From positions 15,168,385 to 15,232,384 of the forward strand of contig JAHRHZ010000041.1 in assembly GCA_024137785.1 (NCBI GenBank): 64,000 nt of DNA, given 5' to 3'. This document shows, one piece after another, positions 1 through 30,376 of this stretch (positions are counted from its first letter, which is position 1; each line of letters begins with the position of its first letter). The position numbers and the translations under genes were made by a program. Origin of the DNA: Ginglymostoma cirratum. Lineage: Eukaryota. The notes beneath the pieces are model-generated. The model was not told the DNA's origin. It made no database searches and was given only the letters and a program-made list of their open reading frames with translations.

Positions 1-124
1 GATGAAGGGTCTAGGCCCGAAACGTCAAGTTTTCCTGCTCCTATGATGCTGCTTGATCTGCTGTGTTCATCCAGCCCCGTGCTTGTTATCTCGGATCCTC
101 CAGCATCTGCAGTACCTTTTATCT
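1..124 (+). mobile_element. Neptune-type PLE terminal segment with minimal hammerhead motif (truncated by window edge)
   Basis: GATGA-A-GGGT-ctag-GCCC-GAAACGTC followed by the same ~95-nt tail as 40653-40745, 16185-16312 and 39351-39480; ends in CCTTTTATCT. Confidence 0.85.
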
Positions 125-324
125 GATACTATTTTGCACCAGTTGCATTTTATGGATCATTTACAACTAGAACCTTTTAAGCATCTTTTCAAACATTTAT
201 AAAATCAAACCCAAGAGATCAAAGCTCAAGTTTCAGTGCTGCACATACATGTTTCAGTTACCATTTCTTAGAAGTATTAAACATTGGATCAAAGGGCCAT
301 CAGCCTTCAGTACCTGCACTCAAC

Positions 325-445
325 TCCCTGCCACGCTGCACTGATAACACCACTGCATGTCAAAAAGTACTTCACTGGCTGTAAGGCATTTGGAGACATC
401 TGAAGGTTGTGAAAAGCGTTATATAAATGCAAGTCACTCTCTTTA
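325..445 (+). mobile_element. 3' tail of Deu-domain SINE (SacSINE1-like) or its L2-type partner
   Basis: caaaaagtacttcactggctgtaaggcatttggagacatctgaagg...atataaatgcaagtc resembles the recalled SacSINE1/L2 tail. Confidence 0.6.
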
Positions 446-1025
446 TTACTCCTACTCAACTCTATTCACTGATGACGCAGTGAGACCATTTTATATTCAA
501 AAACGGGTTTAAAGTCTAGGTGAAGACTGTCTGCCAGTATACGTTATAATGTGTTGAATAGTGTACTAAGTACAGATCATTAAACATCATTGCCAAGACC
601 GAAGACAAGTATTCTGCTCAGGCTTTCATTGCTTTTCAGGAACTTTGAAAATGTAATTACAACTACCACCATCCTCCACCCCCAGTGTATCTCAGTACAG
701 GCAGCAGAAAAAAATGAAGTACTGAGAAATTCAGTTTAATTCCTAGCTATTTACATATACACTGCATGAATACATACCAGCAAAATGTTTTGTCACCAGT
801 TACACAGTTCACATAGCAAACCTAAGAATTAAGTAGGAACACCAGCACTGAAGTGACGAGTGAGCAAAAGGACACAGAGTTGGCAAAGACGGTAGCGCAG
901 TGGGTAATGCCAGCAGACTAAACAAAAAACCAATGGTCAAGGTTAAGGTTCCGAGGACACGTATTACTGTTCCACCACAGCAGCTATTGAATTTCCAATT
1001 CAATTAATAAATCTGTAATATAAAG

Positions 1026-1560
1026 TTTGAGGGGTTGTTGACTTGCTCATTGAGCTGGCTTGTTTTCATTCAGACGTTTCGTCACCATGCTAGGTTACAT
1101 CATCAGTGAAGCCTCCGATGAAGCGATATTATTCTACTCCACTTGGAATTTATACCGTCTGGTCCATTATGGTGAAGAGTGTCATTCCCGGTTTTGTTCT
1201 ATGGGGCTTCCAATTCTATACCTTTGTTGATTGCTTTATGGGTTGAGAACCATGCCTCTAGGAATTCCCATGAACGTCTATGTTTGGCTTGGGCTACTAT
1301 AGATATGCCGTCCAAGTTAAACTGATGGCCTTCATTGTCTGAGTGTACTGATATTAAGGAGTCTGTTGTGCTGTTTTGCTGCTCGCTGAAGTTCATGTAT
1401 TCGGATAGCTTCCTTCCTGTCTGTCCGATTAAATGTTTGTGGCAGTTGCTGCATGGTATTTTGTAAACTACGTCAGTTCTGCACGTTGTGGGAATGGGGT
1501 CTTTAATCCTTGAGTGTTAGTCGTACAGCGGCTGTGGGCTTGTGTGCCATGATTCCTAGT
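1026..1560 (-). mobile_element. Poseidon-type Penelope-like element, decayed GIY-YIG endonuclease C-terminus plus pLTR
   Basis: Minus-strand translation with frameshifts: IKDPIPTTCRTDVVYKIPCSNCHKHLIGQTGRKL...GHQFNLD...AQAKHRRSWEFLEAW; HHR motif at 1073-1106. Confidence 0.88.
1070..1109 (-). ncRNA. Minimal type I hammerhead ribozyme motif (PLE-associated)
   Basis: Reverse complement reads tca-CTGATGA-t-GTaACC tagcat GGTGAC-GAAAC-GTC-tga. Confidence 0.75.
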
Positions 1561-1565
1561 GATCC

Positions 1566-1920
1566 TGAAGGCCATCAGTTTAATTGGGCCAACGTAACCA
1601 TAGTAGCCCAAGCCAAACATAGACATGCATGGGAATTCGTAGAGGCATGGTTCTCAACCCATAATGCAATCAAACAAACATATAGAATTGGACACCATAT
1701 ACAAACCCATACGGAACAAAACCGGAAATGACACTACTCACCATAACGGACCGGACAGTATAAATTCCAAGCGGATTAGAACAACTTCGCCTCATCAGAA
1801 GTCTCACTGACGATGTCACCTAGCATGGTGAAGAAACGTCTGAACGAAAACAAGCCAGCTCGGTGAGCAAGTCAACAACCTCACCCACAAACCGAGCTAC
1901 AAACCTTTGCTAAAACTTTA
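1566..1920 (+). mobile_element. Inverted (head-to-head) duplicate of the same PLE 3' region/pLTR
   Basis: Reverse-complement copy of about 1026-1335 (EGHQFNWANVTIVAQAKHRHAWEFVEAWFSTHNAI); HHR at 1807-1840; whole unit flanked by aatataaag (1017-1025) and aatacaaag (1921-1929). Confidence 0.88.
1804..1843 (+). ncRNA. Minimal type I hammerhead ribozyme motif (PLE-associated)
   Basis: tca-CTGACGA-t-GTCACC tagcat GGTGAa-GAAAC-GTC-tga: core boxes, stem II, palindromic ACGT stem III, 3-bp stem I. Confidence 0.75.
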
Positions 1921-2334
1921 AATACAAAGCGTGTCCCAGTAATGGTAACCGTGACAACTATCATAGATTTGTACAATAATCAACCTCGTTCACTAATATC
2001 CTTTCTGGGGAAGGAAATCTGCCATCCTTACCCAGTCTGGTCTACATGTGACTCCAGTCCCACAGCAATGCCTCGTGGCTACCCTTTGAAACAGCTTGGC
2101 AAGCCACTCAGTTCACAGGCAGTTAGGGATGGTCAACAAATACAGGCCACATCCTACAGGAGAATAAATTCAAAACCTTGGACACAGAATAGAGGGGCAG
2201 GAAGTTCGAGTGGAGTGTAAACTCTGGTCTCCCTTCTTACTGCCCTCCCTTCAGTTTTTGTTTATAACATCTACTCTCGTCACCAGCGGAGCAAGCTTTT
2301 CGCGGCCAATTTAAGGCAGGTGAAAGTTTTTTTT

Positions 2335-2690
2335 CTAATTCATTCACAGGATAAGGTGTCACTGGCAAGGCCAGCATTTATCACTCAGCCCTAACTGTCC
2401 AGAGGGCAGTTCAGAGTCAACCACATTGCTGTGGGTCTGGAGTCACATGTAGGCCAGACCAGGTAAGGGCAGCAGTTTCCTTCCCTAAAGGGCCTTAGTG
2501 AACCAGATGGGATCACCCCCACCCCTGCCACAATCAGCAATGGATTCATGGTCATCATTAGATTCTTAATTCCAGATACTTATTGAATTCAAATTTCCCC
2601 ATCTGCTGTGGCGGGATTCAAACTCTGGTCTCCAGAACATTACCCGAGTCTCTGCGCTAACACTCCAGCGATAATACCGCTAGGCCACAA
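2335..2690 (-). mobile_element. tRNA-derived SINE family A, near full length
   Basis: Reverse-complement match to 20850-21205 including tRNA-like head and ...gtgaatgaat tail. Confidence 0.85.
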
Positions 2691-5117
2691 CATTGCAAAA
2701 AGGGGGCAGGATACAATCAACTGATGCACATCACCTCCCCTCCAATCTGTGAAACCAGTTGCACAAACAGGGCAATCCCACACTCCTGTATATGATGCTT
2801 TAGAAATGCATTCACCCCGGAGCAGAGATGATGTATAATTTTTAAACCCTGTGATCCTTTATCAGTTGACAACAGTAGGTTTGCTCATTAGGACTATTAC
2901 TCCCAGAATGCAATTTTTCTTTAGGGCATCTTATCTTGCCAACTCAAAGTGTTGTTAGAAGATCTTCCAAAGGCTATACACCCTACTCAGTGAAAAATAG
3001 AATCAATTGCATCTCAGCAACATTAACTTGAATATGATGTTTGTGGATTAAGAGGCCTTTTACTTACCTACTGGCTTCTGCCAGTTCCTGATGGAAAGTC
3101 TAATGACAAAGCCCATTTGCTCTCCTATGCTTCAGTATACATAACTGACAGACTGTGAAGGAAAATTGTGCAGTGAACTCAAGATGTGCAGAATGTAGAG
3201 TTCACTAATTGACACTGGGGAATCATAAAAAAAAAAAAACTTTAAAAGCTGACAATGTCAAAACAAATGTCTTCACAGCATGAGCTCTGTGACAAAAAAG
3301 ATCCTCTAAGCACGGCTGGCCTGGGTTTTGCTACCACGCAACTTTCAAGGTGGAATACACTGTAAGAAGCACTTCAATTCAACAGATTTGAAATTCTTCA
3401 TTGTTTTTTTCCCGTTAGCAGTCTCTTTTCAGTAAATAGGTCTAACATGGATTGAATGCTGCATTTTCTTGATAAGGTTCCAGCAATTGGAAGCACCTTC
3501 TCCTGAAACAAGGAATTACCCATTTTTTAATTTGATTTTTTAAGTTGAAAATGTAGCTGGAACACAGTCTTGTCAATAAATCTCCAGTAGCACTCCCTCA
3601 AAGTTCATGCATTATTAACCCAAGACTGTACAGATCTTCATTACCATTCATTTTGTTTACCATTTTCTACATTCAGATTTCCTGGGGCTGTTTAGTGAAT
3701 GACAAAACAGGCGAACATCACATTTGGCATTAGCTGTTTGCCGAACATACTGACATGTGCTATTAAAAGGATTCCAGATAAATTATATTAATCAAGATAT
3801 GCACGGCTCCTATGAAGAAGTCAGAATTAAAATTCTGGTACTGCTACCCAGCATTACCTTAGATCAATATGTTCTTTCAGATCTAAGTGGTTCCTGGCAT
3901 TTGAATCTAGTGATTTTGTTTATCTGCAAAATTGTAAAATCCATTTGGCATTTTCACTGATCGGTCATTAAAATGAGGCTGCAAAAGTTGCAGCTGGAGT
4001 AACTCAATGCGATTTTAGCACTTCTTGTTCTCTATGCTCAGACTTGTCTTTAGCACACAGTAATGCAATGTAATGAAAGCAACTGAACAAAACAGGAGTT
4101 TGGTGTGTGTGCGCGTGTCTTGTCCTCAATCTATATAGAACACTCTAATCAATATCCAATTAAGCAATTTAGAAAATTACTTCATGCAAATGTTGACAAA
4201 TAAACATGCATTCTTCATTACTGGGTATCTGGCAGAATCCCTAGCACAGAGGAAATGCTGAATTAGGATGCAGCAAGAGTATGTGAAACACCAGTTTAGC
4301 TTGCTTGTGTCATTGCATCTACTGATGTACTGGGAACCAAGGAAAAGTGTGAAAATTGTACGACTCCAGCACCAAGTATGTTGGTCCAAATCCTTCCAAG
4401 TTTGAAGGATTCCATGCTACGTAACGATTGTAAGATTTTTGCCTGAACCCTTCAACTTGAATGTAACTTGGTTTGCAACTTGCTGGAAAGGAGAGCTGAG
4501 CATTGTCTAGTAACAGACGAAAGGTGACATATGAAAACAGTAAGCAGCAAGAGCCCATCTCCTTAACCAAGAACGGTTGAGCAACAGAGAAGGGAGGTGC
4601 ATTTGAGTAACATAGGGTAAGGAAAGAAAAAGAGGGAAAGAACAATTGCTTTAGATATTTAAAGTGCACTTAATTGCCTCCCTCCCAACCTCTATTAATT
4701 GAGCCGAGATTTAGCATTGCAAATCCTAAAAAATATTGAAGTTATCTAATACTTAAAATTGAACTAAAATGTGCACGATTACATTTGAAAGTCTTTGTCA
4801 AAGTTGGTCAATATGTCTAAAAATGTTATACTTAACCTTACTTATCCTTTATTGGCTAATCAGAAAAATATCACCTCTTGCACAGCATTCTAGTTTTAAA
4901 CTCATCCAAGTCCCAATGCATCTGTCAGTTTGAAGCAGCAGCCTGGGTGAATCACTGTCACCATCATTTGCCTTGACACTAAATCCATTTTCAATCTTCC
5001 ACAATCCTACTTTAAAACTCTGCTCTTTCCTCACTAAGCAAAATGAACGCCACGGTTTAATGAAGATTTTGCTTCAAGGAGGACTCCACTTGATCAAAAG
5101 GAGGTATTGACTTGATC

Positions 5118-5435
5118 ACAGAAGCCCTACAGTGTGGAGGCAGGTCATTCGGCCCATTCAGTCTACACCTAGCCTCAGAAGAGCATCCCACCCAGACCTA
5201 CCCCCTCCTTCCCTATCTCTGTAACCCTGCAGTTCCTGCGGCTAATTCGCATCGCTGATTAGCATAGTTAATCCAAAGGTGCGCAGGTTGCATGTAGTAT
5301 GGGAGGAAAGTGGAGCACCCAGGGAAAATCCGCACACACAAAAGGTGCGAACTCCACACAGACAGTTACCAGAGGGTGGAATGAAGGGTGGCTCCCTACT
5401 GCCGTGAGACTGTAGTGCTAACTACTGAAGCACTG
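5118..5435 (-). mobile_element. HE1/V-SINE, decayed
   Basis: actccacacagacagttacc...ggtggaatgaa...gtgagactgtagtgctaact; collinear with 63465-63795. Confidence 0.75.
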
Positions 5436-6635
5436 GTCCATCCTTTATTGATCGTACAGGGCAGATACACAACTGTAAAAGAGGACTGATCTGGATCGGT
5501 CCCCCCAATTTCATGGTCACTGTTGACAGAACCTCTCTCTCAACACATGTTCCCAATCCACGGAGTGCTTTATATGCAGCACACTTACAGCACATCAAAC
5601 AGTTGTCATTATTCTTGAGTGAACTGCTTGTAAATGTCCAAGTCATTTTTGTAAAGAATAAAGAGTTGAGTTGTCAGTTTGGCTGTAACCAAAAGAGTAG
5701 TGGATCATGGAAATGAGCATGCATTCCCTGGGATGAGTTGCGCATAGACATAATTGTAAACTATTTTGTTGTGTGGGGTGAGAAAAGAGAAGGAATTTCA
5801 GCAAACAGAACTTTCAAGAAATGGAAAAGAAATGAATGGCATTCAAAAGAAAGAATGCACTGGGGGAAAAAAAAAATCAGCTAACTCTTTTCAGAATAAA
5901 ACAATGAACTCTAAAATGAAAAACTCGAGACCTTAATAGCAAGAAAGGCTTTGACTTATTTTTAGTTTCTTTGCTTTATTTTAGTCAGTTAGGTCCCACC
6001 AGATCTTTTCCAAACATTTAAGCCCTTTCTGTTTTCACTTTCTGGGCGAAACGACATTAGTGTTCAATTAACAGCCTCACCAATTTCACATTGCTGAACC
6101 AATCCGGTCTTTGCCCTGAACTGAGTCACATGGCTTTTCAACTCCATTGCAAATTGTTTAGGTACCTAGCGCTCTTGGAAGTCTACCATCAGACCTCACT
6201 CACGTCTTATTTCTTTCTGAGCCAAACTGCAGCTGAAGATTTGACTCTGCTTCAAAATCGACTCAATATTCATTATACAATTTCAAAAGACATGTTTTCA
6301 AGGTGCATTCATGACTCTGGATTCTGGCATACTTTCCATTGCTCATGGCATTTTTGGTTTCATTGGACATAAACTAGCTATATCTTGGACAACCGACGAG
6401 TGCAAGATTATCTGCTGACAATCTAAATATTCTGGATCAAAATCTCTGAAGAGAAAACCTGTGGGTAACTCACTCTCTCTTCATAAACTGAAGAGGCAGA
6501 AAGCAACTACTATCTACAACTTTGCAACATTCAGACTATTCCCACATTTTACCCATTACTTTAAAGCTGGATTGTTTCTTGCTGATCACTGCTTCAAGTA
6601 GTCTTCTTGCTTCATCAATACAGTCCTCTTACATG

Positions 6636-6730
6636 TTCTGAGGAAGAGTCACTCAACCTGAAATGTTAACGATTTCTGTCCACAGGTACTGCCAGACCTG
6701 CTGAGCTTTTCCAGCAATTTCTGCTTTTGT
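6636..6730 (+). mobile_element. Short PLE-terminus element with decayed HHR
   Basis: ttCTGAGGAagagtcactcaacctGAAATGTT...gccagacctgctgagcttttccagc; ctcttaca on both flanks. Confidence 0.7.
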
Positions 6731-9659
6731 CTCTTACACATGCTTGAGCTCTGTCATCAGTATCTTAAAAGTTGGGAAATTACTTTTAAAAAAGAAAGTG
6801 CCTTTGGTGATCAGGGAAGATCAGATATGAGGTTGTAGATGACAATCTGATGAGGATAGAAGTCAGTGTATATTTATGCCTCCTTGTGCATATGTCCAAT
6901 CTTCATGTGGAATTATCATTTCAGTAAGCATTAGATAGTGTCAATAGCATATTTTGCACTGACTGTCTCATTTGTGTACAAAGCTTCCTGCATTGGTAAA
7001 ACTGCATTAGCTCATTAAGCAACCCTTGGGTTTTAGATGTCAACAAGGAGGGAAATAGTTTGATTTTTATTACTGACAGTCAAGTGCAATTAATTGTGTT
7101 TAATTTGTTTTATTCAACTCAAACAGGACCCCAAGCCAGGAATCTTCAAAACCAGAAACTTGTGTCCCCCAAACTCTACATTTCTTGGAGCAAGAAGAAC
7201 ATAAATTCAAGCAATGAAATCCTGTTTCCCTAGGTGACAATGATGTCCAAGAACAACATATATGCATTGAGTAAGATACAAATTGGCTGTATTTAACCCA
7301 CTAATAACTCAACCTTTATGAGGCAATAGGTCCGATCTTGCACGAAAACGAATATCATGTCAACGACACACAACCTTATTAATGTTCAAATTAGCCAGAA
7401 AATTCTAGGGATAAAGACAGGGCAGGAGATGTGAATCTCTGGAATACGCTGGTTAATTTACACCTTTGCTTTACATAAAAAGGACAACCTATCTTTAGCA
7501 TACCAGGTATTTAAAAAAAAAATCTGCATTGGCATATTAATTGCCCATTGCATTTTCTGCAGAAACAATACAGCGCAGGTAATGTGTGAACAGAATGCTC
7601 ATGCAATTTCAAATTAACCAATCTATCCCAGAAAGGAAACAATTTTGACAGAGCAATTCTTTCTGCCTCTTTCCTGCCTACAAAAAAAAAGTCGGGATTT
7701 AACAAAAAGTCAAATTTCATCTATTTCTAAAACTTTTTTGACCTCTCTCTTTTTCCGTATTTCAACCCTCAAATCTCACTGTTGAGCAGGAGTGCTGTTG
7801 GTCCCAATATTCACTCGGAACGTCCTGCTTCCATTGCCTTGCTGTTGTCCATTCACACCTCCAGCAGGTTATGGTATGAAAATCCTCCAACTGGATGGCA
7901 CATAGAAACTAACACTGCTTGCCATGAGATGCCTCACACTTCCAGGATCAACCACAGTAATGCAAACTAAATGCAACAAAAAGAAACTTCTGCCTAGTCT
8001 GCCATACTGCGATGAAGGCATTTTGAAATCAATTATTCCAAGGTTAAAGAGACAGTCACATCCCAAATGAATCACTAAAGATGCATTTCAGCAGAATAGA
8101 CTGAATCACACACATGAGGCATGGCAACATTGGAAAGCTTTACGATGCTCTAAGAGGATCAGCAGTTCAATACAGAACACCTCGGCATAAAACACATGGA
8201 TAAATCTGTCCCTCTGTATATTTTGAGTCTTTAGAGTTTGATGCACACATGGAGCAGATTTTAGGTAACTGTTAGATTCTACCGGGTTGTGCTTCTCCTG
8301 ATCAATGCCACAGTAGATTGATTATGGGACATGAAGGAGTTGTATCAATGTTTCATGCAAGTCCTGCATCATTGCAAATAAAAAAAAAAAATTGTTTCCT
8401 GCCTGTATTCCAGTTAGATATTTTTCCCTTGGATAACTAAAAAAAAAATCTTGCTTTGGTAAATAGGAGTCCAAATAAAAACTCAATTTAAAATGTGTGC
8501 TGCAAAAAAAGAAGCTCATCCATGACAATGTTGTGAATTATGGATCTTTTAAAGAATGGACAAGGACGTGCTTCAGAGAACCAAGAGAGAAGCTGATGAT
8601 CACTGGGTCATATATTTAAGTGGTAGCTTTCTTCAGTGATGGGAGTTGGTCATGAAGAGGAGACTAGAGACTGGAGTGTGTACTGAATGCCAAAAACGTA
8701 AATAAACATGACCTCTGGTTCAGTAAACCGATAACCAGTAATTAAATAATACTGACTACTGCTGGACAGTCTGAGCTGCAGAGCAGAAATTTAGCAATGT
8801 GGAGATCTACAAGTTCAAAAGGATTAAGTCCTAAAAGCACTGCATGAGATGATGGTTCTGAAGGGGTTGACAATCTTGTTACATTAGTTCCACCTAATCT
8901 ACTGATGTTACACAGTGTGTAGGTCGAGATGAATTCTACTCTTTCGGAAGAACAGATGCATCGATACAACTCCCTAGAGTCCAAGTACTTATGCCTTACC
9001 AGCTGTACTTGCACCTTCTACCGTCAAATACTAAAATTTTTTTTGTTATCTAAGAATTGTGCCTCTTCTGTAGATATTCTACAGTGGTGCATTTTCTTGC
9101 CACTCACCATAGGATGGGCCTGAGGGAGCCAGGACAGCATACCGGTAGAGGTGGCAAATACCACAAGATGCCAGGAGTTCCCAGTATCTGGGAGAATATC
9201 AAAAAATGCTGCAAAGTTTGAGCTATGTGGAAACTCAGAAGTATTATGAAAGTTGCGACAGAATCTCTCTCCAACAGCACATCATCCAATCCCAAACAGG
9301 ACAACAATACATCAAGAGAACTCTTCACCTGTGTGACAATAATCCACTGTTACAGACCATGTGATGCTTGTCACATTAACAAGATAATAACCACTCAGTG
9401 GATTATTAATTCTGCAGTTTCGTTTAAGACAGCATGGTAAATTACAAAACCGCTAATTCCAACAGCTCACCTTGCTGGACAAGCAGACAAACTGCCTGCC
9501 TAGCAGAGTCACAACATTATATACACGCAGCTCATTAAGTCCTTAAAGGCAAGGTGCACATACAATTATCGAGAATGGCCAATATCACCCACTGCTCCCA
9601 AACTGCATGTTTTCCATAATATGTGAAGCTGCCTAATGCTGCACAGAAAGTAGAATTAA

Positions 9660-9895
9660 AGGAACAGTCTCAGGGTAAGGAGATGGCCATTTTTGACTGG
9701 GCTGAGGAGAAAGATCTTCACTCAGGAGGGATGTGAATCTTGAGAATTCTCCACCCAAAACTTTGTCATTGAATATATTCAAAAGTGGAATTATTTTTGT
9801 ACTAAAGGAATTGAGTGCTATAGGGATTAAGTGGGCATGATCTTATAAAATGGCAAAGCTCAAAGCTTTGTACAGCCTACTCCTGTTCCTTATGT
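9660..9895 (+). mobile_element. CR1-type LINE 3' fragment
   Basis: gaggagaaagatcttcactcaggagggatgtgaatcttgagaattct...cctactcctgttccttatgtt, typical CR1 3' end. Confidence 0.7.
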
Positions 9896-10069
9896 TGTGT
9901 GATGTATCATTTCCTGCAGAACTGAATGATTAAGTGGTAAGTCAACGATGTAGCAAAAAAAAAAAAAAAATCCAAGGATTCCAAATTCACCAACACCTGG
10001 CAGCATTGCTTGGAGTGCTACAAATAGGGCTAACATTCTTGGATTGAAGAACAAATACAACCTGCCATT

Positions 10070-10362
10070 GCCCCTTCTCAAAGCTCAGATCAATGTGTTT
10101 CTCTGGTTCTGTGCATCCCCAGTTGCGATTATTCCACCACTGACAACTGTGTTTTCAGCTGCGTAGGCACTTGGATCTGGAATTCACTCTGCAAATGTAT
10201 CCATGCCCCTCTCCTTCTTTAAGGCATCCAGAAAACAGCTTCTTCTACAAAGCATCCATCCTCAACCCTATTAAAGTGCCTCTGTCAAATTTTGTTCTAT
10301 AATACTGAAGTGCCCCAGGATGCTTTACTGTGCTCAAGGCTCAACATAAACATATGCTGTTC
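10070..10362 (+). mobile_element. L2-type LINE 3' fragment, decayed
   Basis: ttcagctgcgtaggcacttggatctggaattcactct...tcttctttaaggca...tgaagtgccccaggatgctttac resembles an L2 3' UTR. Confidence 0.5.
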
Positions 10363-10640
10363 TTGTGAGAACTAACCAGATATGCCTCACCTGCAGTTTT
10401 CTAGACTGGACATTGTGCCCAGTGTTTCTTTAAATTAGTCTGAGATGTGACAATTCTGAATGGCTGCAACTGTGGGTGAACAACCTGTCACCACCCATCA
10501 CTGTAAACATCTTTCAGGTATTGACGGGAACGAGCAGACGTGAAACTGTACTCCGTGAAGGAGTCAATACTTTTAGAAGAGGGGGACAGAAACTCGGGTT
10601 GGAAAAAAAAAATACAAAAAACCAAGCGTAAACGGAGGCA

Positions 10641-10835
10641 TGATGTGGAGATGCCAGTGTTGGACTTGGGTGGTCAAAGTCCGAAGTCACACAACACCAG
10701 ATTATAGTCCAACAGGTTTATTTGGAATCACAAGCTTTCTGAGCACTGCCCCTTCACCTGACAAAGGGGCAACACTCAAAGCTCGTGATTTCAAATAAAC
10801 CTGTTGGACTATAATCTGTTGTCCGACTTCTGACC
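10641..10835. mobile_element. Fold-back (palindromic) PLE-terminus element, third family, with decayed HHR
   Basis: Perfect 27-bp inverted repeat 10698-10724 / 10792-10818; centre cac-CTGACAA-aggggc..actc-AAAG-CTC-gtg; its outer end also occurs alone at about 54570-54605. Confidence 0.75.
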
Positions 10836-11619
10836 CTAACCGAGGCAAGCATTCTCCCCCGTGTTCACATGAAAACGTAGACATATTAGGATTAATTTTG
10901 TTAAAGCTAAATTTTGTTAAAGCTAAAAACTGAAACAGTTCAGAATTTTGATGCTGTGTATTCCAAAATGCATCAACCACACTATTGCACATCATACCGC
11001 ACCCCCTGCCTGCCCAACGAATGAAAGCATTATCAAATCCCTTCGTACTCCATGCTTCCCTACTCTGCAAGAGTCACCCACCAGTCACACGGAAGTAGAT
11101 TATTGCACAGGAACCAATCAGACTTAAACACTGCATAAACAAGAAAGCACACAAGACCATATTTGCATTTCATTTGTTAAAGAAAAAAATTGCCAGTGCA
11201 CTACAGAAGGCAGGCAGTGATTTCTAGGGCTGTCACAGAATTCAGCAATTAATCTGTGGCTGCTTCATGAACATCAGCAGAAATTAGATACTGAATTAAA
11301 ACTCAATGCACCAGGCAGATATTTCCTTCACATTGCTGCCTCTCAGAGCTAAATATTCCTCCCTTCTGAAGGCATGGATTTCTTGCTGTTGTGTTGTTCC
11401 AGGTCATTCCTCAGCATTTCGTGTAGGTGACTATCTGTGTACTGAACGTCTTACTATTTGCTTTCAGCAAGGCCAGCAAGTGTCATACAGAGATTTTGTG
11501 TGTGACACTTAAAAAAAAAAATCATTGTCTCTCTATTCTAAGGGCATTAAAGTTTCTGTAGTACTTCTATTTATGCCGTGGTGGAGATAAACTGACCGAA
11601 CTAGTGAGCCATATAAAAT

Positions 11620-11750
11620 AAAGCGAAGAACTCTGAATGCTGGGGATCTGAAACAAAAACACAAACTGGAGAAATTCAGTAGGTCTGGTGGCATCTGTGG
11701 GGAAATAGCTGAGTTAATGTTTCGAGTCTAACGGCATTTCTGTTGAACTG
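11620..11750 (-). mobile_element. Short PLE-terminus element, decayed
   Basis: ctggagaaattcagtaggtctggtggcatctgtgg...gttaatgtttcgagtc is the reverse complement of the family tail and GAAAC box. Confidence 0.65.
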
Positions 11751-12104
11751 GTTTCCATCGTTATCTTATGGGGATAATGTGATATAACTGGAAGGGCAAG
11801 CTGATAACTGCGTAGAACCTGACCCTTGTGTGGTAGGCGGTTTGGAACAAAAAACTTTTGCTACACCAATGAATAGTCAGGAAAAAAAAGTCTATACAAT
11901 ACGTTATGAAAACCCCTCATTTTATTTACCCAAGATACAACACCTTATTCAAAAACACAGACTTCAGAGAAACTTATGCATGAACTCTTCAAATAATGAC
12001 TATAGCTATAAATAAAGAAGTGATAGCTTGGCTGTTGTCCATACTAGAGTTAGATGCCAAGTGCATCACACATCAATGATTTTCTAGCCATTCAAAAAGG
12101 GTCA

Positions 12105-12912
12105 GAAGTGGGGATGTTTGCAGATGATTGCACAGCATTAAGCACTATCCGAGACTCCTCGTGTACCAAGGTGGTTAATGTCCAAATGCAGCAAAACCTG
12201 GACAGCAATTAGCAAGCAACATTCACACCAAGTGCCAGGCAATGACCATTTCTAACAAGACAGAATCTATTCATTGCCCCTTGACGCTCAATCGGGTACC
12301 ATTAACGAATCCACCATTATCAACACTTTGGGGGTTACCATTGACCAGAAACTGAACTAGCCATATAAGTACAGTGGCTACAACAGCAAGTCAGAAGCTA
12401 GGAACTCAATTTCAGATTCCCCAAAGCCTTTCCACCATCTACAAGGCACATGTTTGAAGTGTCATAGAATACTCTCCTCTTGCCAGGTTGAGTCCAGTTC
12501 TAACAACACTCAAGAAGCGTGACACCAATCAGAACAAAGCAGCCCACTTGATTGGTACCAACTCGTCAAACATTTCTTTTTTCTCCATCGCTGAATTGTA
12601 GTCACAGCAGTGTGCTCCATTTACAAAATTCACTACAGAAATTCACCAAGGTTCCTTAGATAGCACCCTCCAAACCCATGACGACTACTGTTTTCTAAAA
12701 AAAAAAGGACAGCTGCAGCAGATACTTGGGGAACGCCGCCACCTGCAATTGCCATTCCTTCAATATTGCTGGGTCAAAATTGTGGGAATCCCTCGGATAC
12801 CTACAGTGGTTTAAGAAAACAGTTCACCATCACATTATCAAGATCAACTCGGGGCTGGAAACAAACGCTGGCCTAGCCAGCAACGCCACATCCCATGAAT
12901 GAACGTAAAGAA
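12105..12912 (+). mobile_element. CR1/L2-group LINE 3' fragment (family B; RT C-terminus and 3' UTR)
   Basis: MFADDCT...LGVTIDQKLN...TVATTASQKLG remnant; tail gctggcctagccagcaacgccacatcccatgaatgaa shared with SINE family A. Confidence 0.8.
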
Positions 12913-13199
12913 AAATTCCCTGGTGAGTTGATGATTTTCGTCCCATTTTAGATACTGAAATTCCTCATTGATTAGAATGGGAAAGGAATCCCATCCAAGA
13001 TCTGACTACTAACTGGCATTCTGTGATCCTCTATAGAAAATGCACTGTGACTCAAAGCAGCTTCAGTATATCGTTCAGATGTTACAGTGCATTTGCACCA
13101 CTGTACAGAAATATATGCCTTTTCACTCACGTTCAAACCTGTTCACGATGAAACAATGGAACATGCAAGCTACATTTCATCAAATCCTCAGTGATTTAC

Positions 13200-13296
13200 C
13201 ATCAGAAGTGATCAGTTACTGGCAGGAACAGTGTCTGGTCTTGGAGCATTTCATCATTGGGAGAGTTCCACTTACCTAGAAACAAAAAAGGAGAGA
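13200..13296 (-). other. Candidate recursive splice site with RS-exon (13275->13200)
   Basis: Minus strand TCTCTCCTTTTTTGTTTCTAG|GTAAGT; 76 nt later ATG|GTAAAT donor; stops in all three frames. Confidence 0.5.
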
Positions 13297-13830
13297 TCTT
13301 CATTACTAAAGGCACTTTGTTCAATTGGTAGAAAAGACTTCAACTTTTCAAAATAAATAAATTTGGGATTGTTGTCAACGATGTAAGAAATTAAAACTGG
13401 GATAAAATGCATTTAAATTTCAAGTGTCCATGTAAATGTAGCAATTTACTTGTAAAGGTTCATTTTTATTTATATATAATAATTTGCAGCATTAGCTGGA
13501 AATTCCATATTTGACAGTGAATTTAATTGTTCCTGTATACTCTGCTCAGACACACTACAAATGATGCCATGTAATTTATGCACGTGTTCATTAATTAATG
13601 CTTTGTGCGTACAGGCACAATTACAACAAACTGTGCTCTTGAATGAAAGCAAACAGAATGTCAGCATGGAACAATGTGCGTTGACAAAAAGTCAAATACC
13701 ACATACAAAATGGATAAATGGGGAATCAGAACATAAGCAATCAGACTAACAATCTCATCAACACCGAGAAACAGAATTTTAGTACAGTATCTGCCTAGTC
13801 TGTTACAACGAGGTGCTCAGGGCATCCGAG

Positions 13831-14058
13831 CAATAGTAAGAACCGCAGATGCTGGAGTCAGAGGTAACGCAGTGTGGAGCTGGAGGAACACGGCAGACCA
13901 GGCAGCATCAGAGGAGCAGGAAAGCTGATGTTTCGGTTCGGGACCCTTCTTCAGAAAATAAAGTGTGTCTGGAGAAGGATCCCGACCCAAAACGTCAACT
14001 TCCCTGCTCCTCTGATGCTGCCTGGCCTGTTGTGTTCCTCCAGTTCCACACTGTGTTA
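13831..14058. mobile_element. Head-to-head pair of PLE-terminus/HHR elements
   Basis: Minus copy about 13831-13956 and plus copy about 13968-14058; flanked by degenerate 16-bp direct repeat gctcagggcatccgag (13815-13830) / gctcaagacgtccgag (14059-14074). Confidence 0.8.
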
Positions 14059-14747
14059 GCTCAAGACGTCCGAGTTGCCAGTACATCTCAGATCAACCAA
14101 GTGCTGCAACTCCCACATCATGCACAAAGGAATAGAATTACTGCTCAGGAGAAGTTGCTGAACAAAGACCAAAGCATATCACTTTTCTTTCTGTGGCCAC
14201 TTCTGCTTTTGAAGGAGAAAAAAGAAAGGCAAATAACCTCCGATTTGGCAGACCTGTTAACTGGTGACAGCAGTTACACCTGGGCACCTGCAACTGTGGA
14301 GTCTGCTCCATGGCAAACAATGTACAGGCTGTTCACAGAATGCGTGCAGTCACCAGACTCCTCATTAACTCAAAAGACTATCAAAATACCATTGCACATT
14401 ATCATCTTCTATTCTGAAGCGAGGTCAAAAGCCTAGGTGTTAACTGCAAGGACAGAGCATAGAGGAGTTGGTTTATCAACTGTAAGTGAATTAATAGAAT
14501 TGCAAGGATTTCAAGCTCTACATTCAGCAAGATGCAAGGTCAAACACACTGTTATAAACTTCAATTTTCCCTTCCTCTGATAACTGTAAGATCTTTTAAC
14601 ACTTATGTTTCAGGACTGTTTATTTAATTTAGCATGAGATGGAGAAACGAGGTGCATCATGCCCCCAATTCTGAATTCTGCTGCTTGGATGTTCGGGATC
14701 AAGGTTTGTGAACCGTTGTCCTTTAACAAATTAATTCACTTTAAAAT

Positions 14748-14848
14748 TTGTGGAGCGTAATCAGAGTTAATGTTTCGGGCTCGGTGCCCCTTTCTTCAGA
14801 ACACCCAAAACCTGCTGAGTTTTCTAGCAACTTCTGTTCTTGGTTCTT
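14748..14848. mobile_element. Head-to-head PLE-terminus fragments
   Basis: gagttaatgtttcggg...ttcttcagaa (minus) joined to acctgctgagtttctagcaacttctg (plus). Confidence 0.6.
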
Positions 14849-16034
14849 AGAAGCTAAGAATTGCTTTGGGCAGGTTCCAGGAGAATGAAATATGTACTTG
14901 AAGCTCGAAGTATAAAAATGGAAGGAAATTTAATGGTAAATTAATTTTTGTCTCATTTAAAAGTTGTCAACTAAAATAGTGTTTAGTCAATGTTGTTGTC
15001 TGACCCGTATAGTCGTTCACGAGCCGTTTGAACTTCCTTTCAAAAGTCATCAGTCTCTAAGGGGATCATAACAATATGCGTTACAGTCCAGTACTGCAAT
15101 ATTTGATCAGCTAAGCATACTCTCTAGACAATGTACTATTACCCAAGTGCTCTCAGTAACCCATCAAGTTCAATTAACTCATGTTTCAGGGAGCCCCAGA
15201 CACACTCATTTTTTCATTCAGCTCTCAAACACTCCACTGCTCTAGAGAACCAGTAAAATTCCAAGCAGACGAATGAAAGACCAAAAGGACCTTCAAGCCT
15301 GAACTGCTTTTCTCAAGCCTCTGGAATATAAACATGAAGAGAGATACATCAATTTGGTATGTCAGCACGACAAAGTGCTTAGACCTGGAAGGGCATGAAG
15401 GACACTTGGCCCAAACAGATTTAGCAATCGTAGCAGGGCAGTGCGCTGTGTGAATACCCAGAGATACATTTACAGATCTGTAATGCTGCTCTTAAAATGA
15501 GCTCTTCTCCCGTTTCATAGTAACTACTCACCAAAATGCACTGTCAAACCTAACCCAAGGGCTCACCATACTTCTAAAATGAGTTATCTTTCAAACAGTA
15601 ACCACAACATTCTTTATTATAGTTTCAGGTTTCAACCCATTTCTCCACTGCTCTAACAAGATGTGAAGTAGTAAAGATATCAAGGGCTGTAGACTCCCTG
15701 CTGTAGGAAGAGGAGATGATGATGTAACACAGAAGGACTAAAAAATATTGGTGAAGGTTTTCTGGTGGACAATAAATCCACTGCAGGGAAATCAGATAAA
15801 AGGTAGGGTCACGCCCTAACCCTATAGTTATATTTACTGTCAAAGAATTTGCTGAGCCTTATGACCTTGGGTAATCTCTAAAAAGGACCATAAAAAGATG
15901 AGTGCCAGCATCAACCAAATTATTACCCTCTTCCCAGATCTGCCCACTCCAACATAAAGTTTCTGAACAAGGAAGGAAGGGAATAATCTATGCATTTCAC
16001 ATGTGCTAAAAATAGTTAGAAAATTGGCAATCAA

Positions 16035-16567
16035 TTTTTTTTCCTTTATGCATTCATGGGATGAGGCTGTCGCTGACCAGGCAGCATTTATTGCCCATCC
16101 TAATTGCCCAGAGAGCAGTTTAGAGTAAACCACATTGTTGTTGGTCCAGAGTCACATGTAGGCCAGATCAGGTAAGTATGGCAGAGATAAAAGGTACTGC
16201 AGATGCTGGAGAATCCGAGATAACAAGCATGGGGCTGGATGAACACAGCAGGTCAAGCAGCATCATAGGAGCAGGAAAACTTGACGTTTCGGGCCTAAAC
16301 CCTTCATCAGAAATTTCTTGTTATCTTGTTATCTCAGGTAAGTATGGCAGTTTCCTTCCGTAAAGGGCGTTAGTAAACCAGATGGGTTTTTCCCCTAACA
16401 ATCCTCAATGAGTTCATGGTCACAATTAGATTCGTAATTCCAGATATTTTATGGAATTCAAATTCCACCATCTGCCATGGTGGGATTCGAACCTAGGTCC
16501 TCAGGACATTATCTGGGTCTCCAGATTAACAAGTCCAGTGATAATACCACGAGGCCATTGCCTCCCT
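16035..16567 (-). mobile_element. SINE family A interrupted by a young HHR element
   Basis: Reverse-complement match to 20850-21205 on both sides of the 16185-16333 insert. Confidence 0.85.
16185..16333 (-). mobile_element. Young Neptune-type PLE-terminus element with intact HHR and 17-bp TSD
   Basis: rc: ttt-CTGATGA-A-GGGT ttag GCCC-GAAACGTC-aag; perfect direct repeat tcaggtaagtatggcag at 16168-16184 and 16334-16350. Confidence 0.9.
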
Positions 16568-18434
16568 GCTTCAGAGATAAGTCTACGACCTGTGCTCATA
16601 CAATAAACAGTCTCAAAATTTCAAAGGCCCTTTGAAATTAACACATGGAAAGTTATAGGTTGTAAACTGCTCTCCACTGTGCCCACGTGAATCCATGTGT
16701 ACAAAGAACAGAGCTGTAAACAGTATAACATCAGAACTGTTAATATGCAACATATTGAATCTAGGCCATTCCCTGCTAACTAAAGGATTCCTCTCAGGTA
16801 ACAAAATGACGACCATCAATCTGCCACTATGAACATAAGTTACTGAAGAACCGTGTCCCCTGCTTGTGAACACTACCTAACAGAAAGATTAAATTATTAC
16901 AAATTAAGATACAAACCGCTGCCCTGGACTTATTTCATAACAGGCACGTAAATTTCATATTTGGATGATGGATAAACCATTTGATTTTTACTATGCGAGC
17001 TGATGTCTTCACCTGAAACGCAGACATCTTGCTTTGGTCATTTTTAGTCATTCGTTTGTGTGTATTCTACTACTTTGATAATTAGCACCTTACTGCAGAA
17101 TTATTAAACTGTTATGAATAACGTACCATGTAACAGAATGTGACAACAGTCAAATATACAGATGCAATGCTATCTGTTAACAGCTTGCTTATTTATTATC
17201 TTTCATGATAATGATCAATCTACAGTTGAACTTAATTTAAGATGCATATTTAACATATTGCATCCTGTATTTAGATATGCAATCATGCTAAATTTATCTA
17301 GGAGTACCTCCAGTTCTCGGATCAATTTCTGGTGGTCACCAGATATAAAAATCTGAAATCATTTACCTGAAATTGTCACGATTAAGAAGAACTCCCGCTA
17401 CATGTGAAATCTCCAGGACTAATTTTTCAGTGTACAATTTGTTTGGACAGTTCAGAGTTATTTTCCAATAAGGTACAAGCAATCTTCATTGGAAATGCAA
17501 ACTGGGAACCTTCTGTCAGATATTATGGAAGGTCCACTACCCGCTTTTACTTGAGTGGCCAGGAGTAAAATTCCACGTTATTGATGGAAAATACTGGACA
17601 AAGGACTAAAGGGAGTATAAATCTTCAATATTTTTGATGAAACTTTGGTTTCATCGGTTGCTGCAAGATTTGCGTGGCTCGCAATGGTGGGGGCAATGCA
17701 AATGTGGAACATGGATGAAATGTAGGTTTTGATCTAAAACTATTTATCAATTTGCAAGATTCTGAGGAACACTGCTAGGATACCAACTCTGAAACAAATC
17801 TATAGAATTCTAACAAGTTCAGATGTAGATCGACCTCAGTTTGGGATAAGTATCTACCTAATTTAGGTGCATGGAATAAAGCAAATAAAAAACGTAATTT
17901 ATAACCTTTTGCTTATGGCCTCAACTGAAGAGTTTATAAATAAGTCACTGAACCCCACTAGAGAAAACTGAGAAATTGAGTTGTAAATTTTAAGAGGAGC
18001 AGGGATATTAATCCCAAAATCTGAAAGGTCCGTAGTTCAAATCAGTCCTGCCTAAGCTCTAACTGGACTAATTGGACCAGTGTATGTCATCCCCAATTCG
18101 GTAGGCTAAACCGAAGTGATATAGATGAAATTGGGATGGTTAAAAATTTAAGTGAATCTATATCAAGTACACATTTGGAACTTTGAACACTTTCAGTTGT
18201 TTTCACTCCAATAACAATGATGCGACAGTTCCTAGCACAAACACCGGATACTTGGATGTTGGTGAGCACATCTCATTCACCATCTAAGCAGGACTTAGAC
18301 CGAACACACGTTGGAGTGGAAGTAGACCATTCTGCCCTTAAAGCCATTCAAGATGATCACGGCTGATTGGTGGGGGAATAAAGGGTAGGTGGGAATATGG
18401 AATTAAAAACACAAACCAAACAAGAATCTATCCA

Positions 18435-29545: not shown

Positions 29546-30376
29546 CCCCAGACTGGCGCGATCCAGTTTGTGAAGATTTAAAGGCAGCTCTCACCCAGGT
29601 TAGAGGGAAGGAACTCCAGTGCAATCCTCACAGTGAAAGTCATTTTTGACATTAGAAGTTACCTGACTAGGAAAGGGAAAAGGAAGTAAGCCATTGGAGA
29701 TTAGATTTGGTTCCAGTTAAGGGATAGTGTAAAGTTTAACTGTAATGGAACAGCTTTGGATGCAGTTAAATGAGGAATTGGTTACCCCCATTTTGTAGGC
29801 AACGTTCTCTTTAGTTAGTAATCATCGAAGCCTTAAAACCTCAAATCTTGCTGGTTCATACTTACAGTTACTGGGAATGTAAATATCTTTAATGTTACTG
29901 ATCTCTGCAAAGGCCATAACACTGATTTCACTGCTGTAATGACAATTAATGCCGACAGTTCCACCACCTAAACAACAAAATATAGTTCAATGTGTTTATA
30001 TGTGGCACTCAACCAGGACAGAGGGCACTACACAGTACCATACCGCACGATCCAAGCTCAATTTACAAATCTTTCTTAAAACCCAAATGTGCAATTAGCT
30101 TTCATCTTTTAGACTTGTTTGCCAATCCAAGCAACAGCCCAACATCAAATTAAATATAGATTTTAATTCAAGATTAATGCACTTTGCATTGCTGGTTGAA
30201 CGGAGCTTTGCAAATGTCCCTACAGCAGTGAGCATGATAAGAGAAATCAAGGAAAGGCTTGCGATGACAAAGCACCTTTCGTGATCTTCACCTGTGCCAA
30301 TGCACTTTATGATCAATAAAATATCTTTGAACTGTTATTATTGTAACGTATAAAATATTACAAGTGCTGTCATGTT

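Follow-up and report, generated by a model that had tools for sequence, protein, structure and literature searches.

Intron 1 of the shark CADM1 gene carries, on its sense strand, an acceptor fused directly to a donor, which is likely a recursive splice (RS) site through which the intron could be removed in two steps. A rough probability of 0.75 was assigned to this reading. Since mice and humans cut the same intron in two steps, sharks likely do so as well. The window, meaning the whole stretch of 64,000 nucleotides analysed at G000:C41:15,168,385-15,232,384, lies inside this intron, and positions given below without a contig are those of the window.

For identification of the host gene, a simple exon finder was applied to the window and 200 kb on each side, and Ig-domain exons were predicted around the window on the minus strand. 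One predicted exon matched human CADM1 in the PDB with an E value of 7e-22, far above CADM2-4, and another showed 97-100% identity to CADM1 of several sharks, with carpet sharks giving the best matches. Using tblastn with shark CADM1 proteins, the exon 1 donor was placed at C41:15,377,228, approximately 195.6 kb upstream of the site, and the start of exon 2 at C41:15,095,778, approximately 85.9 kb downstream. Exon 1 ends with AAG/GTAAGC (the slash marks the splice point) and exon 2 starts after GAAG. From these exon positions it follows that the whole window falls within CADM1 intron 1 of about 281.4 kb, with the candidate site at 69.5% of the intron. The earlier note had proposed a giant intron of a minus-strand gene, and this is borne out. 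The gene also belongs to those which that note had named as recursively spliced. AUTS2, another gene on its list, is absent from the 20 mouse RS sites listed from PMC8797253.

A 21-nt CADM1 microexon was also observed on the minus strand outside the window, 12.4 kb before exon 2 and some 60.2 kb to the left of position 1. It has a good acceptor and an AAG/GTAGAG donor, and it explains a 7-residue insertion in three of the eight CADM1 proteins listed.

The features of the region are the following:

1-64000, minus strand: intronic throughout, within the roughly 281.4-kb intron 1 of CADM1, from tblastn over 464 kb, exon ends, and PDB and protein matches
13302-13305, minus strand: candidate branch point TAAT, by consensus match, with the putative branch A 28 nt before the site
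13278-13296, minus strand: polypyrimidine tract
13276-13277, minus strand: acceptor AG of the candidate recursive site
13270-13275, minus strand: GTAAGT, which would read AAG/GTAAGT if joined to exon 1
13200-13275, minus strand: candidate 76-nt RS-exon with a putative 3' boundary
13202-13204, minus strand: TGA, at which translation continued in frame from CADM1 exon 1 would first stop; 2 nt of the 76-nt segment follow it
13194-13199, minus strand: downstream donor ATG/GTAAAT, with GT at 13199-13198 (2.1 bits vs 8.1 for the reconstituted donor, simple PWM)
13133-13138, minus strand: alternative weak donor CAG/GTTTGA, giving a 137-nt exon (0.2 bits, simple PWM)
13125-13130, minus strand: alternative donor AAC/GTGAGT, giving a 145-nt exon (3.2 bits, simple PWM)

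The pyrimidine tract (18 of 19 positions) stands directly before the AG at 13277-13276, and the GTAAGT at 13275-13270 is fused to this AG. This fused AG/GTAAGT, read on the minus strand in the earlier note, was confirmed from the sequence, as were the second donor ATG/GTAAAT 76 nt further on and the stops in all three frames of the intervening segment. Repeat-free surroundings of about 0.9 kb, also reported there, were recovered at approximately 12936-13832. High-copy repeats lie at 13832-14067 (hairpin-like) and at 16034-16574 (very abundant in polyA reads). Rfam matches to miRNA near 13884-14039 were rejected, as they scored below the gathering threshold and lay inside the repeat.

When viewed by Sibley-type criteria, the site combines a strong 3' splice site with the consensus 5' splice site AG/GTAAGT, and its reconstituted donor is stronger than the downstream donor (8.1 vs 2.1-3.2 bits, on a simple PWM and not MaxEntScan). 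CADM1 is a long neuronal gene, and the motif reads in the sense direction within its 281.4-kb first intron; mammalian RS sites are described from very long first or second introns (PMC8797253). The 9-mer AAG/GTAAGT has a MaxEnt value of 11 among the mouse RS sites given in PMC8797253. Within the 20 nt upstream of the shark site, 18 are pyrimidines, the mouse range being 0.6-1.0 across 20 sites. Among the 12 YAG/GTRAG sites of the window, the shark CADM1 site had the richest tract (16/17 pyrimidines).

Such a motif is expected only rarely by chance. In 100 fifth-order Markov copies, YAGGTAAGT preceded by at least 14/17 pyrimidines occurred 0.02 times per window, both strands taken together. The site ranked first among the 1,087 sense AGGT in CADM1 intron 1. 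It also ranked first among the 3,617 AGGT on both strands of the 464-kb region (window plus 200 kb each side, including 7,613 unread bases that could conceal a site), with 17.2 bits compared to 13.0 for the runner-up. The second-ranked sense acceptor-donor fusion in intron 1, CAG/GTAACT at position 29662 (minus strand, 12.6 bits), is probably a chance occurrence.

The segment downstream of the site was also compared with chance. Three-frame stops were found in 1,335 of 3,340 76-nt windows of the same strand (40%), and an equally good donor was located 40-150 nt downstream of 735 of 2,967 random positions (25%). Both features are at chance level and were rejected as evidence for recursive splicing. 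The stop-containing RS-exon of 76 nt, as put forward in the earlier note, is thus not supported beyond chance; the validated mouse Cadm1 RS-exon measures about 150 nt, and in shark other donors are present at 137 and 145 nt.

Based on the mammalian mechanism, the strong acceptor and one of the weak donors further on would together define a short cryptic exon. Splicing of exon 1 to 13275 would then remove about 196 kb, and the new junction AAG/GTAAGT would outcompete the weak downstream donor and join exon 2. This second step would remove the final 86 kb, including the cryptic exon, and would leave no trace in mRNA. In published work, the RS-exon is skipped when the reconstituted donor is strong enough to win over the donor downstream (PMC6224609); taken together with 8.1 bits for the reconstituted donor vs 2.1, 0.2, and 3.2 bits for the donors at 76, 137, and 145 nt, respectively, this makes two-step removal the likely outcome. 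Rare inclusion of the cryptic exon would cause a frameshift and a stop after 23 codons, and because the TGA at 13204-13202 lies in the exon-1 frame, such transcripts are predicted to be degraded by nonsense-mediated decay (NMD).

The same elements could belong to a real but ordinary cassette or poison exon, included through the 76-nt donor (or the 137- or 145-nt donors) while the exon junction complex (EJC) blocks the reconstituted donor. The in-frame stop and the frameshift would create an NMD target, many annotated human RS-type exons are reported to be included since the EJC represses the RS donor (PMC6224609), and an annotated human exon lies at what is probably the CADM1 RS position (PMC6110456). 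However, the downstream donors are weak compared to a near-perfect reconstituted donor, a layout favouring skipping according to PMC6224609, and no insertion from the candidate segment was found in the eight CADM1 protein sequences listed, although an NMD isoform would not be expected to appear there. An ordinary exon of this kind was considered unlikely.

It may also be asked whether GTAAGT serves as an ordinary donor. The site would then be a splice decoy, or would supply a donor or an exon to a different transcript, for instance an intronic non-coding RNA or a CADM1 form with an alternative 5' exon. TAG before GTAAGT does make a strong ordinary donor, and some RS-exons are included from minor promoters, for example in CADM2 (PMC6224609). 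A plain donor, however, would function without a 19-nt pyrimidine tract and a branch point just ahead of it. Moreover, no CpG island was detected near the site, nor did any exon predicted in the region with the crude finder point to a second gene. This explanation was regarded as very unlikely, and a recursive site remained the preferred reading.

Conservation of the site was assessed in organism B, a close relative, of which a contig (approximately 96% identical) covers 12873-13832 with 40 differences. The module at 13182-13306 (125 nt) contained one listed substitution vs 35 in about 930 nt overall, corresponding to P of about 0.05. This is a weak test, with one close relative, module boundaries picked post hoc, and differences counted as listed, so that further indels may exist. 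Among the differences listed, none affected the pyrimidine tract, AG/GTAAGT, or the 76-nt donor. The GT of the 145-nt donor is lost in organism B, with changes at 13130 and 13126.

RNA data were inspected for the junction and for coverage. Six of 12 listed runs were used, one of which consisted of organism-B sequence and one of which had no aligned read. No junction from exon 1 to 13275 was found in the five organism-A runs; as none of these was shown to be total RNA expressing CADM1, the result speaks neither for nor against use of the site. In a polyA raw-read run, of which about 24% was read, no read covered the module. Contigs of three runs formed thin patches on both sides of the site, resembling DNA or unspliced material, and the junction was absent among those listed. 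Coverage over 8276-18275 was too sparse and too dominated by repeats for a saw-tooth step to show, and no RNA record is listed over 12900-13800.

A search for motifs of the same class was performed across the 4.36-Gb shark genome. A pattern tailored to the site yielded six matches. An untailored pattern, consisting of 18 pyrimidines and AGGTAAGT with one mismatch allowed, yielded 98 matches compared to 225 for the reversed control, and the motif is thus without overall genome excess. By manual count, 34 of the 98 had AGGTAAGT intact and at least 17/18 pyrimidines, the shark CADM1 site included. Approximately seven of these 34 share a CCATT core and, by eye, look like one repeat family.

Nine of the 33 other motifs were examined: four as top matches, and five chosen for being paired or close to a candidate gene. 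Four of the 33 were in sense orientation and flanked by mapped exons, in CADM2, PDE4D (two motifs), and ANK3, while none of the 34 was antisense within the mapped regions of CADM1, CADM2, PDE4D, and ANK3. With a generous target of 15 Mb for RS genes, about 0.057 would be expected, and the probability of at least four is 4e-7 when the 24 unexamined motifs are scored as misses. All four genes (Cadm1, CADM2, PDE4D, and ANK3) appear on the mouse RS list given in PMC8797253. The motifs at the three other genes are:

G000:C61:30,362,362-30,362,387, plus strand: RS-class motif in CADM2 intron 1, with exon 1 lying 730 kb upstream and exon 2 lying 535 kb downstream
G000:C249:61,802,516 and 62,113,924, minus strand: two RS-class motifs in PDE4D 5' introns, after two long-form first exons and before the UCR2 exon
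G000:C139:46,481,484 and 46,344,317, minus strand: two RS-class motifs at an ANK3-like gene, from the genome pattern search

Atlas and PDB matches did not single out the ankyrin paralogue, and the gene is presumed to be ANK3 on the basis of its first exons and exon 2. Two first exons flank its downstream motif, which is 74.5 kb from the more upstream of them, the corresponding distance of the mouse Ank3 site being 60.8 kb (PMC8797253). An ACG/GTAAGT donor follows this motif at 159 nt. The upstream motif precedes the 5'-most mapped ANK3 exon by 63 kb; the mouse list contains nothing corresponding to it, and it may represent a second site. The CADM2 motif is positioned at 58% of a 1.26-Mb intron 1, with no good donor within 350 nt, and the PDE4D motif at 62,113,924 is followed by a TTG/GTAAGA donor 37 nt on.

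None of the four top-match motifs was placed in a known RS gene: one lies upstream of a short-chain dehydrogenase, one upstream of a HECT ligase, and two without a named gene in the 200 kb downstream. The motif at G000:C93:4,688,065 (minus strand) is a perfect 18-pyrimidine AG/GTAAGT followed by 200 kb without a recognisable coding exon, and is a candidate giant-intron site. Another perfect motif, at G000:C40:21,378,713 (minus strand), has an AAG/GTGAGT donor about 60 nt on, is exon-like, and lies 73 kb upstream of the HECT ligase gene, which is presumably HACE1-like. At G000:C268:7,961,046-7,961,071 (plus strand), a pyrimidine-rich AG/GTCAGT was observed 250 kb upstream of a same-strand sulfotransferase exon, and this could be an RS site of the HS6ST family; in the sulfotransferase search, none of the 34 motifs was near a same-strand match.

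These counts bear on whether the shark CADM1 motif arose by chance in a long intron and has no splicing role. The class has 34 members genome-wide, of which several examined lie outside known RS genes, it shows no excess over the reversed control, and the constraint in organism B is borderline. Against this, the probability that one such motif falls on the sense strand of CADM1 intron 1 is approximately 0.001-0.003, the lower value corresponding to the genome-wide count of 34. Recursive splicing of the intron is, moreover, established independently in mammals, and the class is strongly concentrated in RS genes. A chance origin was judged improbable.

The mouse Cadm1 RS site and its human counterpart were reportedly first described by Sibley et al. 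in 2015. The site is positioned at chr9:47,633,924 and is supported by 62 upstream junction reads (PMC8797253), and saw-tooth coverage was reported for the first intron of mouse Cadm1 (PMC5809388). Human CADM1 is likewise reported as recursively spliced (10.1101/2025.08.14.666599; PMC6110456; 10.1101/2024.12.11.627982). Mouse RS sites, as described in PMC8797253, are characterised by AGGTAAGT, a pyrimidine-rich upstream stretch, and location in a first intron of more than 51 kb; the shark CADM1 site fits this profile.

Like the shark site, the mouse Cadm1 site occupies the sense strand of the same intron of the same gene and consists of AG/GTAAGT with a weaker downstream donor. The reconstituted donor is very strong in both cases, CAG/GTAAGT in mouse and AAG/GTAAGT in shark. 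Both tracts contain TCTCTCCT 17-19 nt before the AG, an element that also occurs in one mouse Lsamp tract (2 of 20 mouse sites by eye, PMC8797253). A degenerate pattern spanning the mouse and shark tracts gave a single match in a metagenome collection, in a bacterial ribosomal-protein operon, and no vertebrate copy there; because the shared pattern also matches such an operon, the likeness of the tracts carries little information. The mouse site is proven by RNA; the shark site is a candidate from sequence.

Position and exon length differ between the two species. According to PMC8797253, the mouse site lies 103.4 kb after exon 1, or about 40% of the intron, compared to 196 kb (69.5%) in shark, and the mouse RS-exon is about 150 nt long and ends with CAG/GTAATT, compared to shark candidates of 76, 137, and 145 nt. 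The mouse intron is bounded at about 260 kb by a transcript ending at 47,792,583 (PMC5809388). Human CADM1 intron 1 measures 263,848 nt. At 39.7% of its length, 104.8 kb from its start, the annotation has the beginning of another intron (PMC6110456); we infer that this point marks the end of the human RS-exon. Neither the relative position nor the RS-exon length of the shark site thus matches the validated mammalian site. Uneven growth of the intron could explain the difference in position. An alternative orthologue nearer 40% was also sought, and the best candidate, at 89,334 in extended window coordinates (42%), was not favoured, having a weak AAG acceptor and 9.8 bits vs 17.2.

A closer match in position was found in human. 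The putative site at chr11:115,188,016 (PMC6110456, S1 Table, Zhang et al. 2018) lies in the same intron at 70.9%, the exons on either side being 187 kb and 77 kb away. It has the strongest acceptor (12.46) among the intron-1 entries in the 62 CADM1 rows (of 120) considered, with a PhastCons value of 1. This human site is a predicted one; CADM1 was not found in the junction-supported S2 and S3 tables of PMC6110456. No CADM1 entry was found in the supplements of PMC10156609 and PMC6224609.

Provided that the shark site is real, the odds that it is the orthologue of the known mammalian site were considered about even; correspondence to the human 71% site appeared appreciably less probable, and an independent origin less probable again. 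A more specific proposal, which is speculative and rather doubtful, is that the shark site is the counterpart of the conserved human AG/GT at chr11:115,188,016 and not of the mammalian 40% site, the intron having retained a recursive site from the common ancestor of jawed vertebrates onwards, with a shift in which position dominates. If true, selection would act on having a stepping stone and not on its place, and a second, overlooked RS site would be predicted in human CADM1. When the motifs in CADM2, PDE4D, and ANK3 are added, the genes that carried RS sites ancestrally could then be charted in the shark genome from motifs alone.

Sharks and mammals split more than 400 million years ago. That CADM1, CADM2, PDE4D, and ANK3 have kept RS-class motifs in the same introns in shark argues for long-term selection, and these motifs give exact sites for testing. 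No paper on recursive splicing in sharks was found in the literature searched, while the conservation figures of Sibley 2015 may already show fish alignments. The earlier note had held that a shark site would bear on the age of the mechanism. This argument is weaker than claimed, since earlier publications describe recursive splicing in flies and in cadm2a of zebrafish (PMC5126111; 10.1101/2025.08.14.666599), and with the mechanism known from flies to mammals its occurrence in sharks is unsurprising.

The importance of fixed recursive sites in vertebrates is an unsettled question. Blocking the human CADM1 and ANK3 sites reportedly left expression not lowered (10.1101/2025.08.14.666599; PMC6110456), whereas deletion of CADM2 RS1 lowered it (10.1101/2025.08.14.666599).

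When compared with known systems in other genes, the shark site shares a fused acceptor-donor, a short downstream exon (a candidate one in shark), and a long intron with the zebrafish cadm2a RS-exon and with Drosophila ratchet points that have cryptic RS-exons. Approximately 197 such sites are reported in flies vs about 10 in humans (PMC6224609), and the shark looks like the sparse vertebrate pattern rather than the fly pattern.
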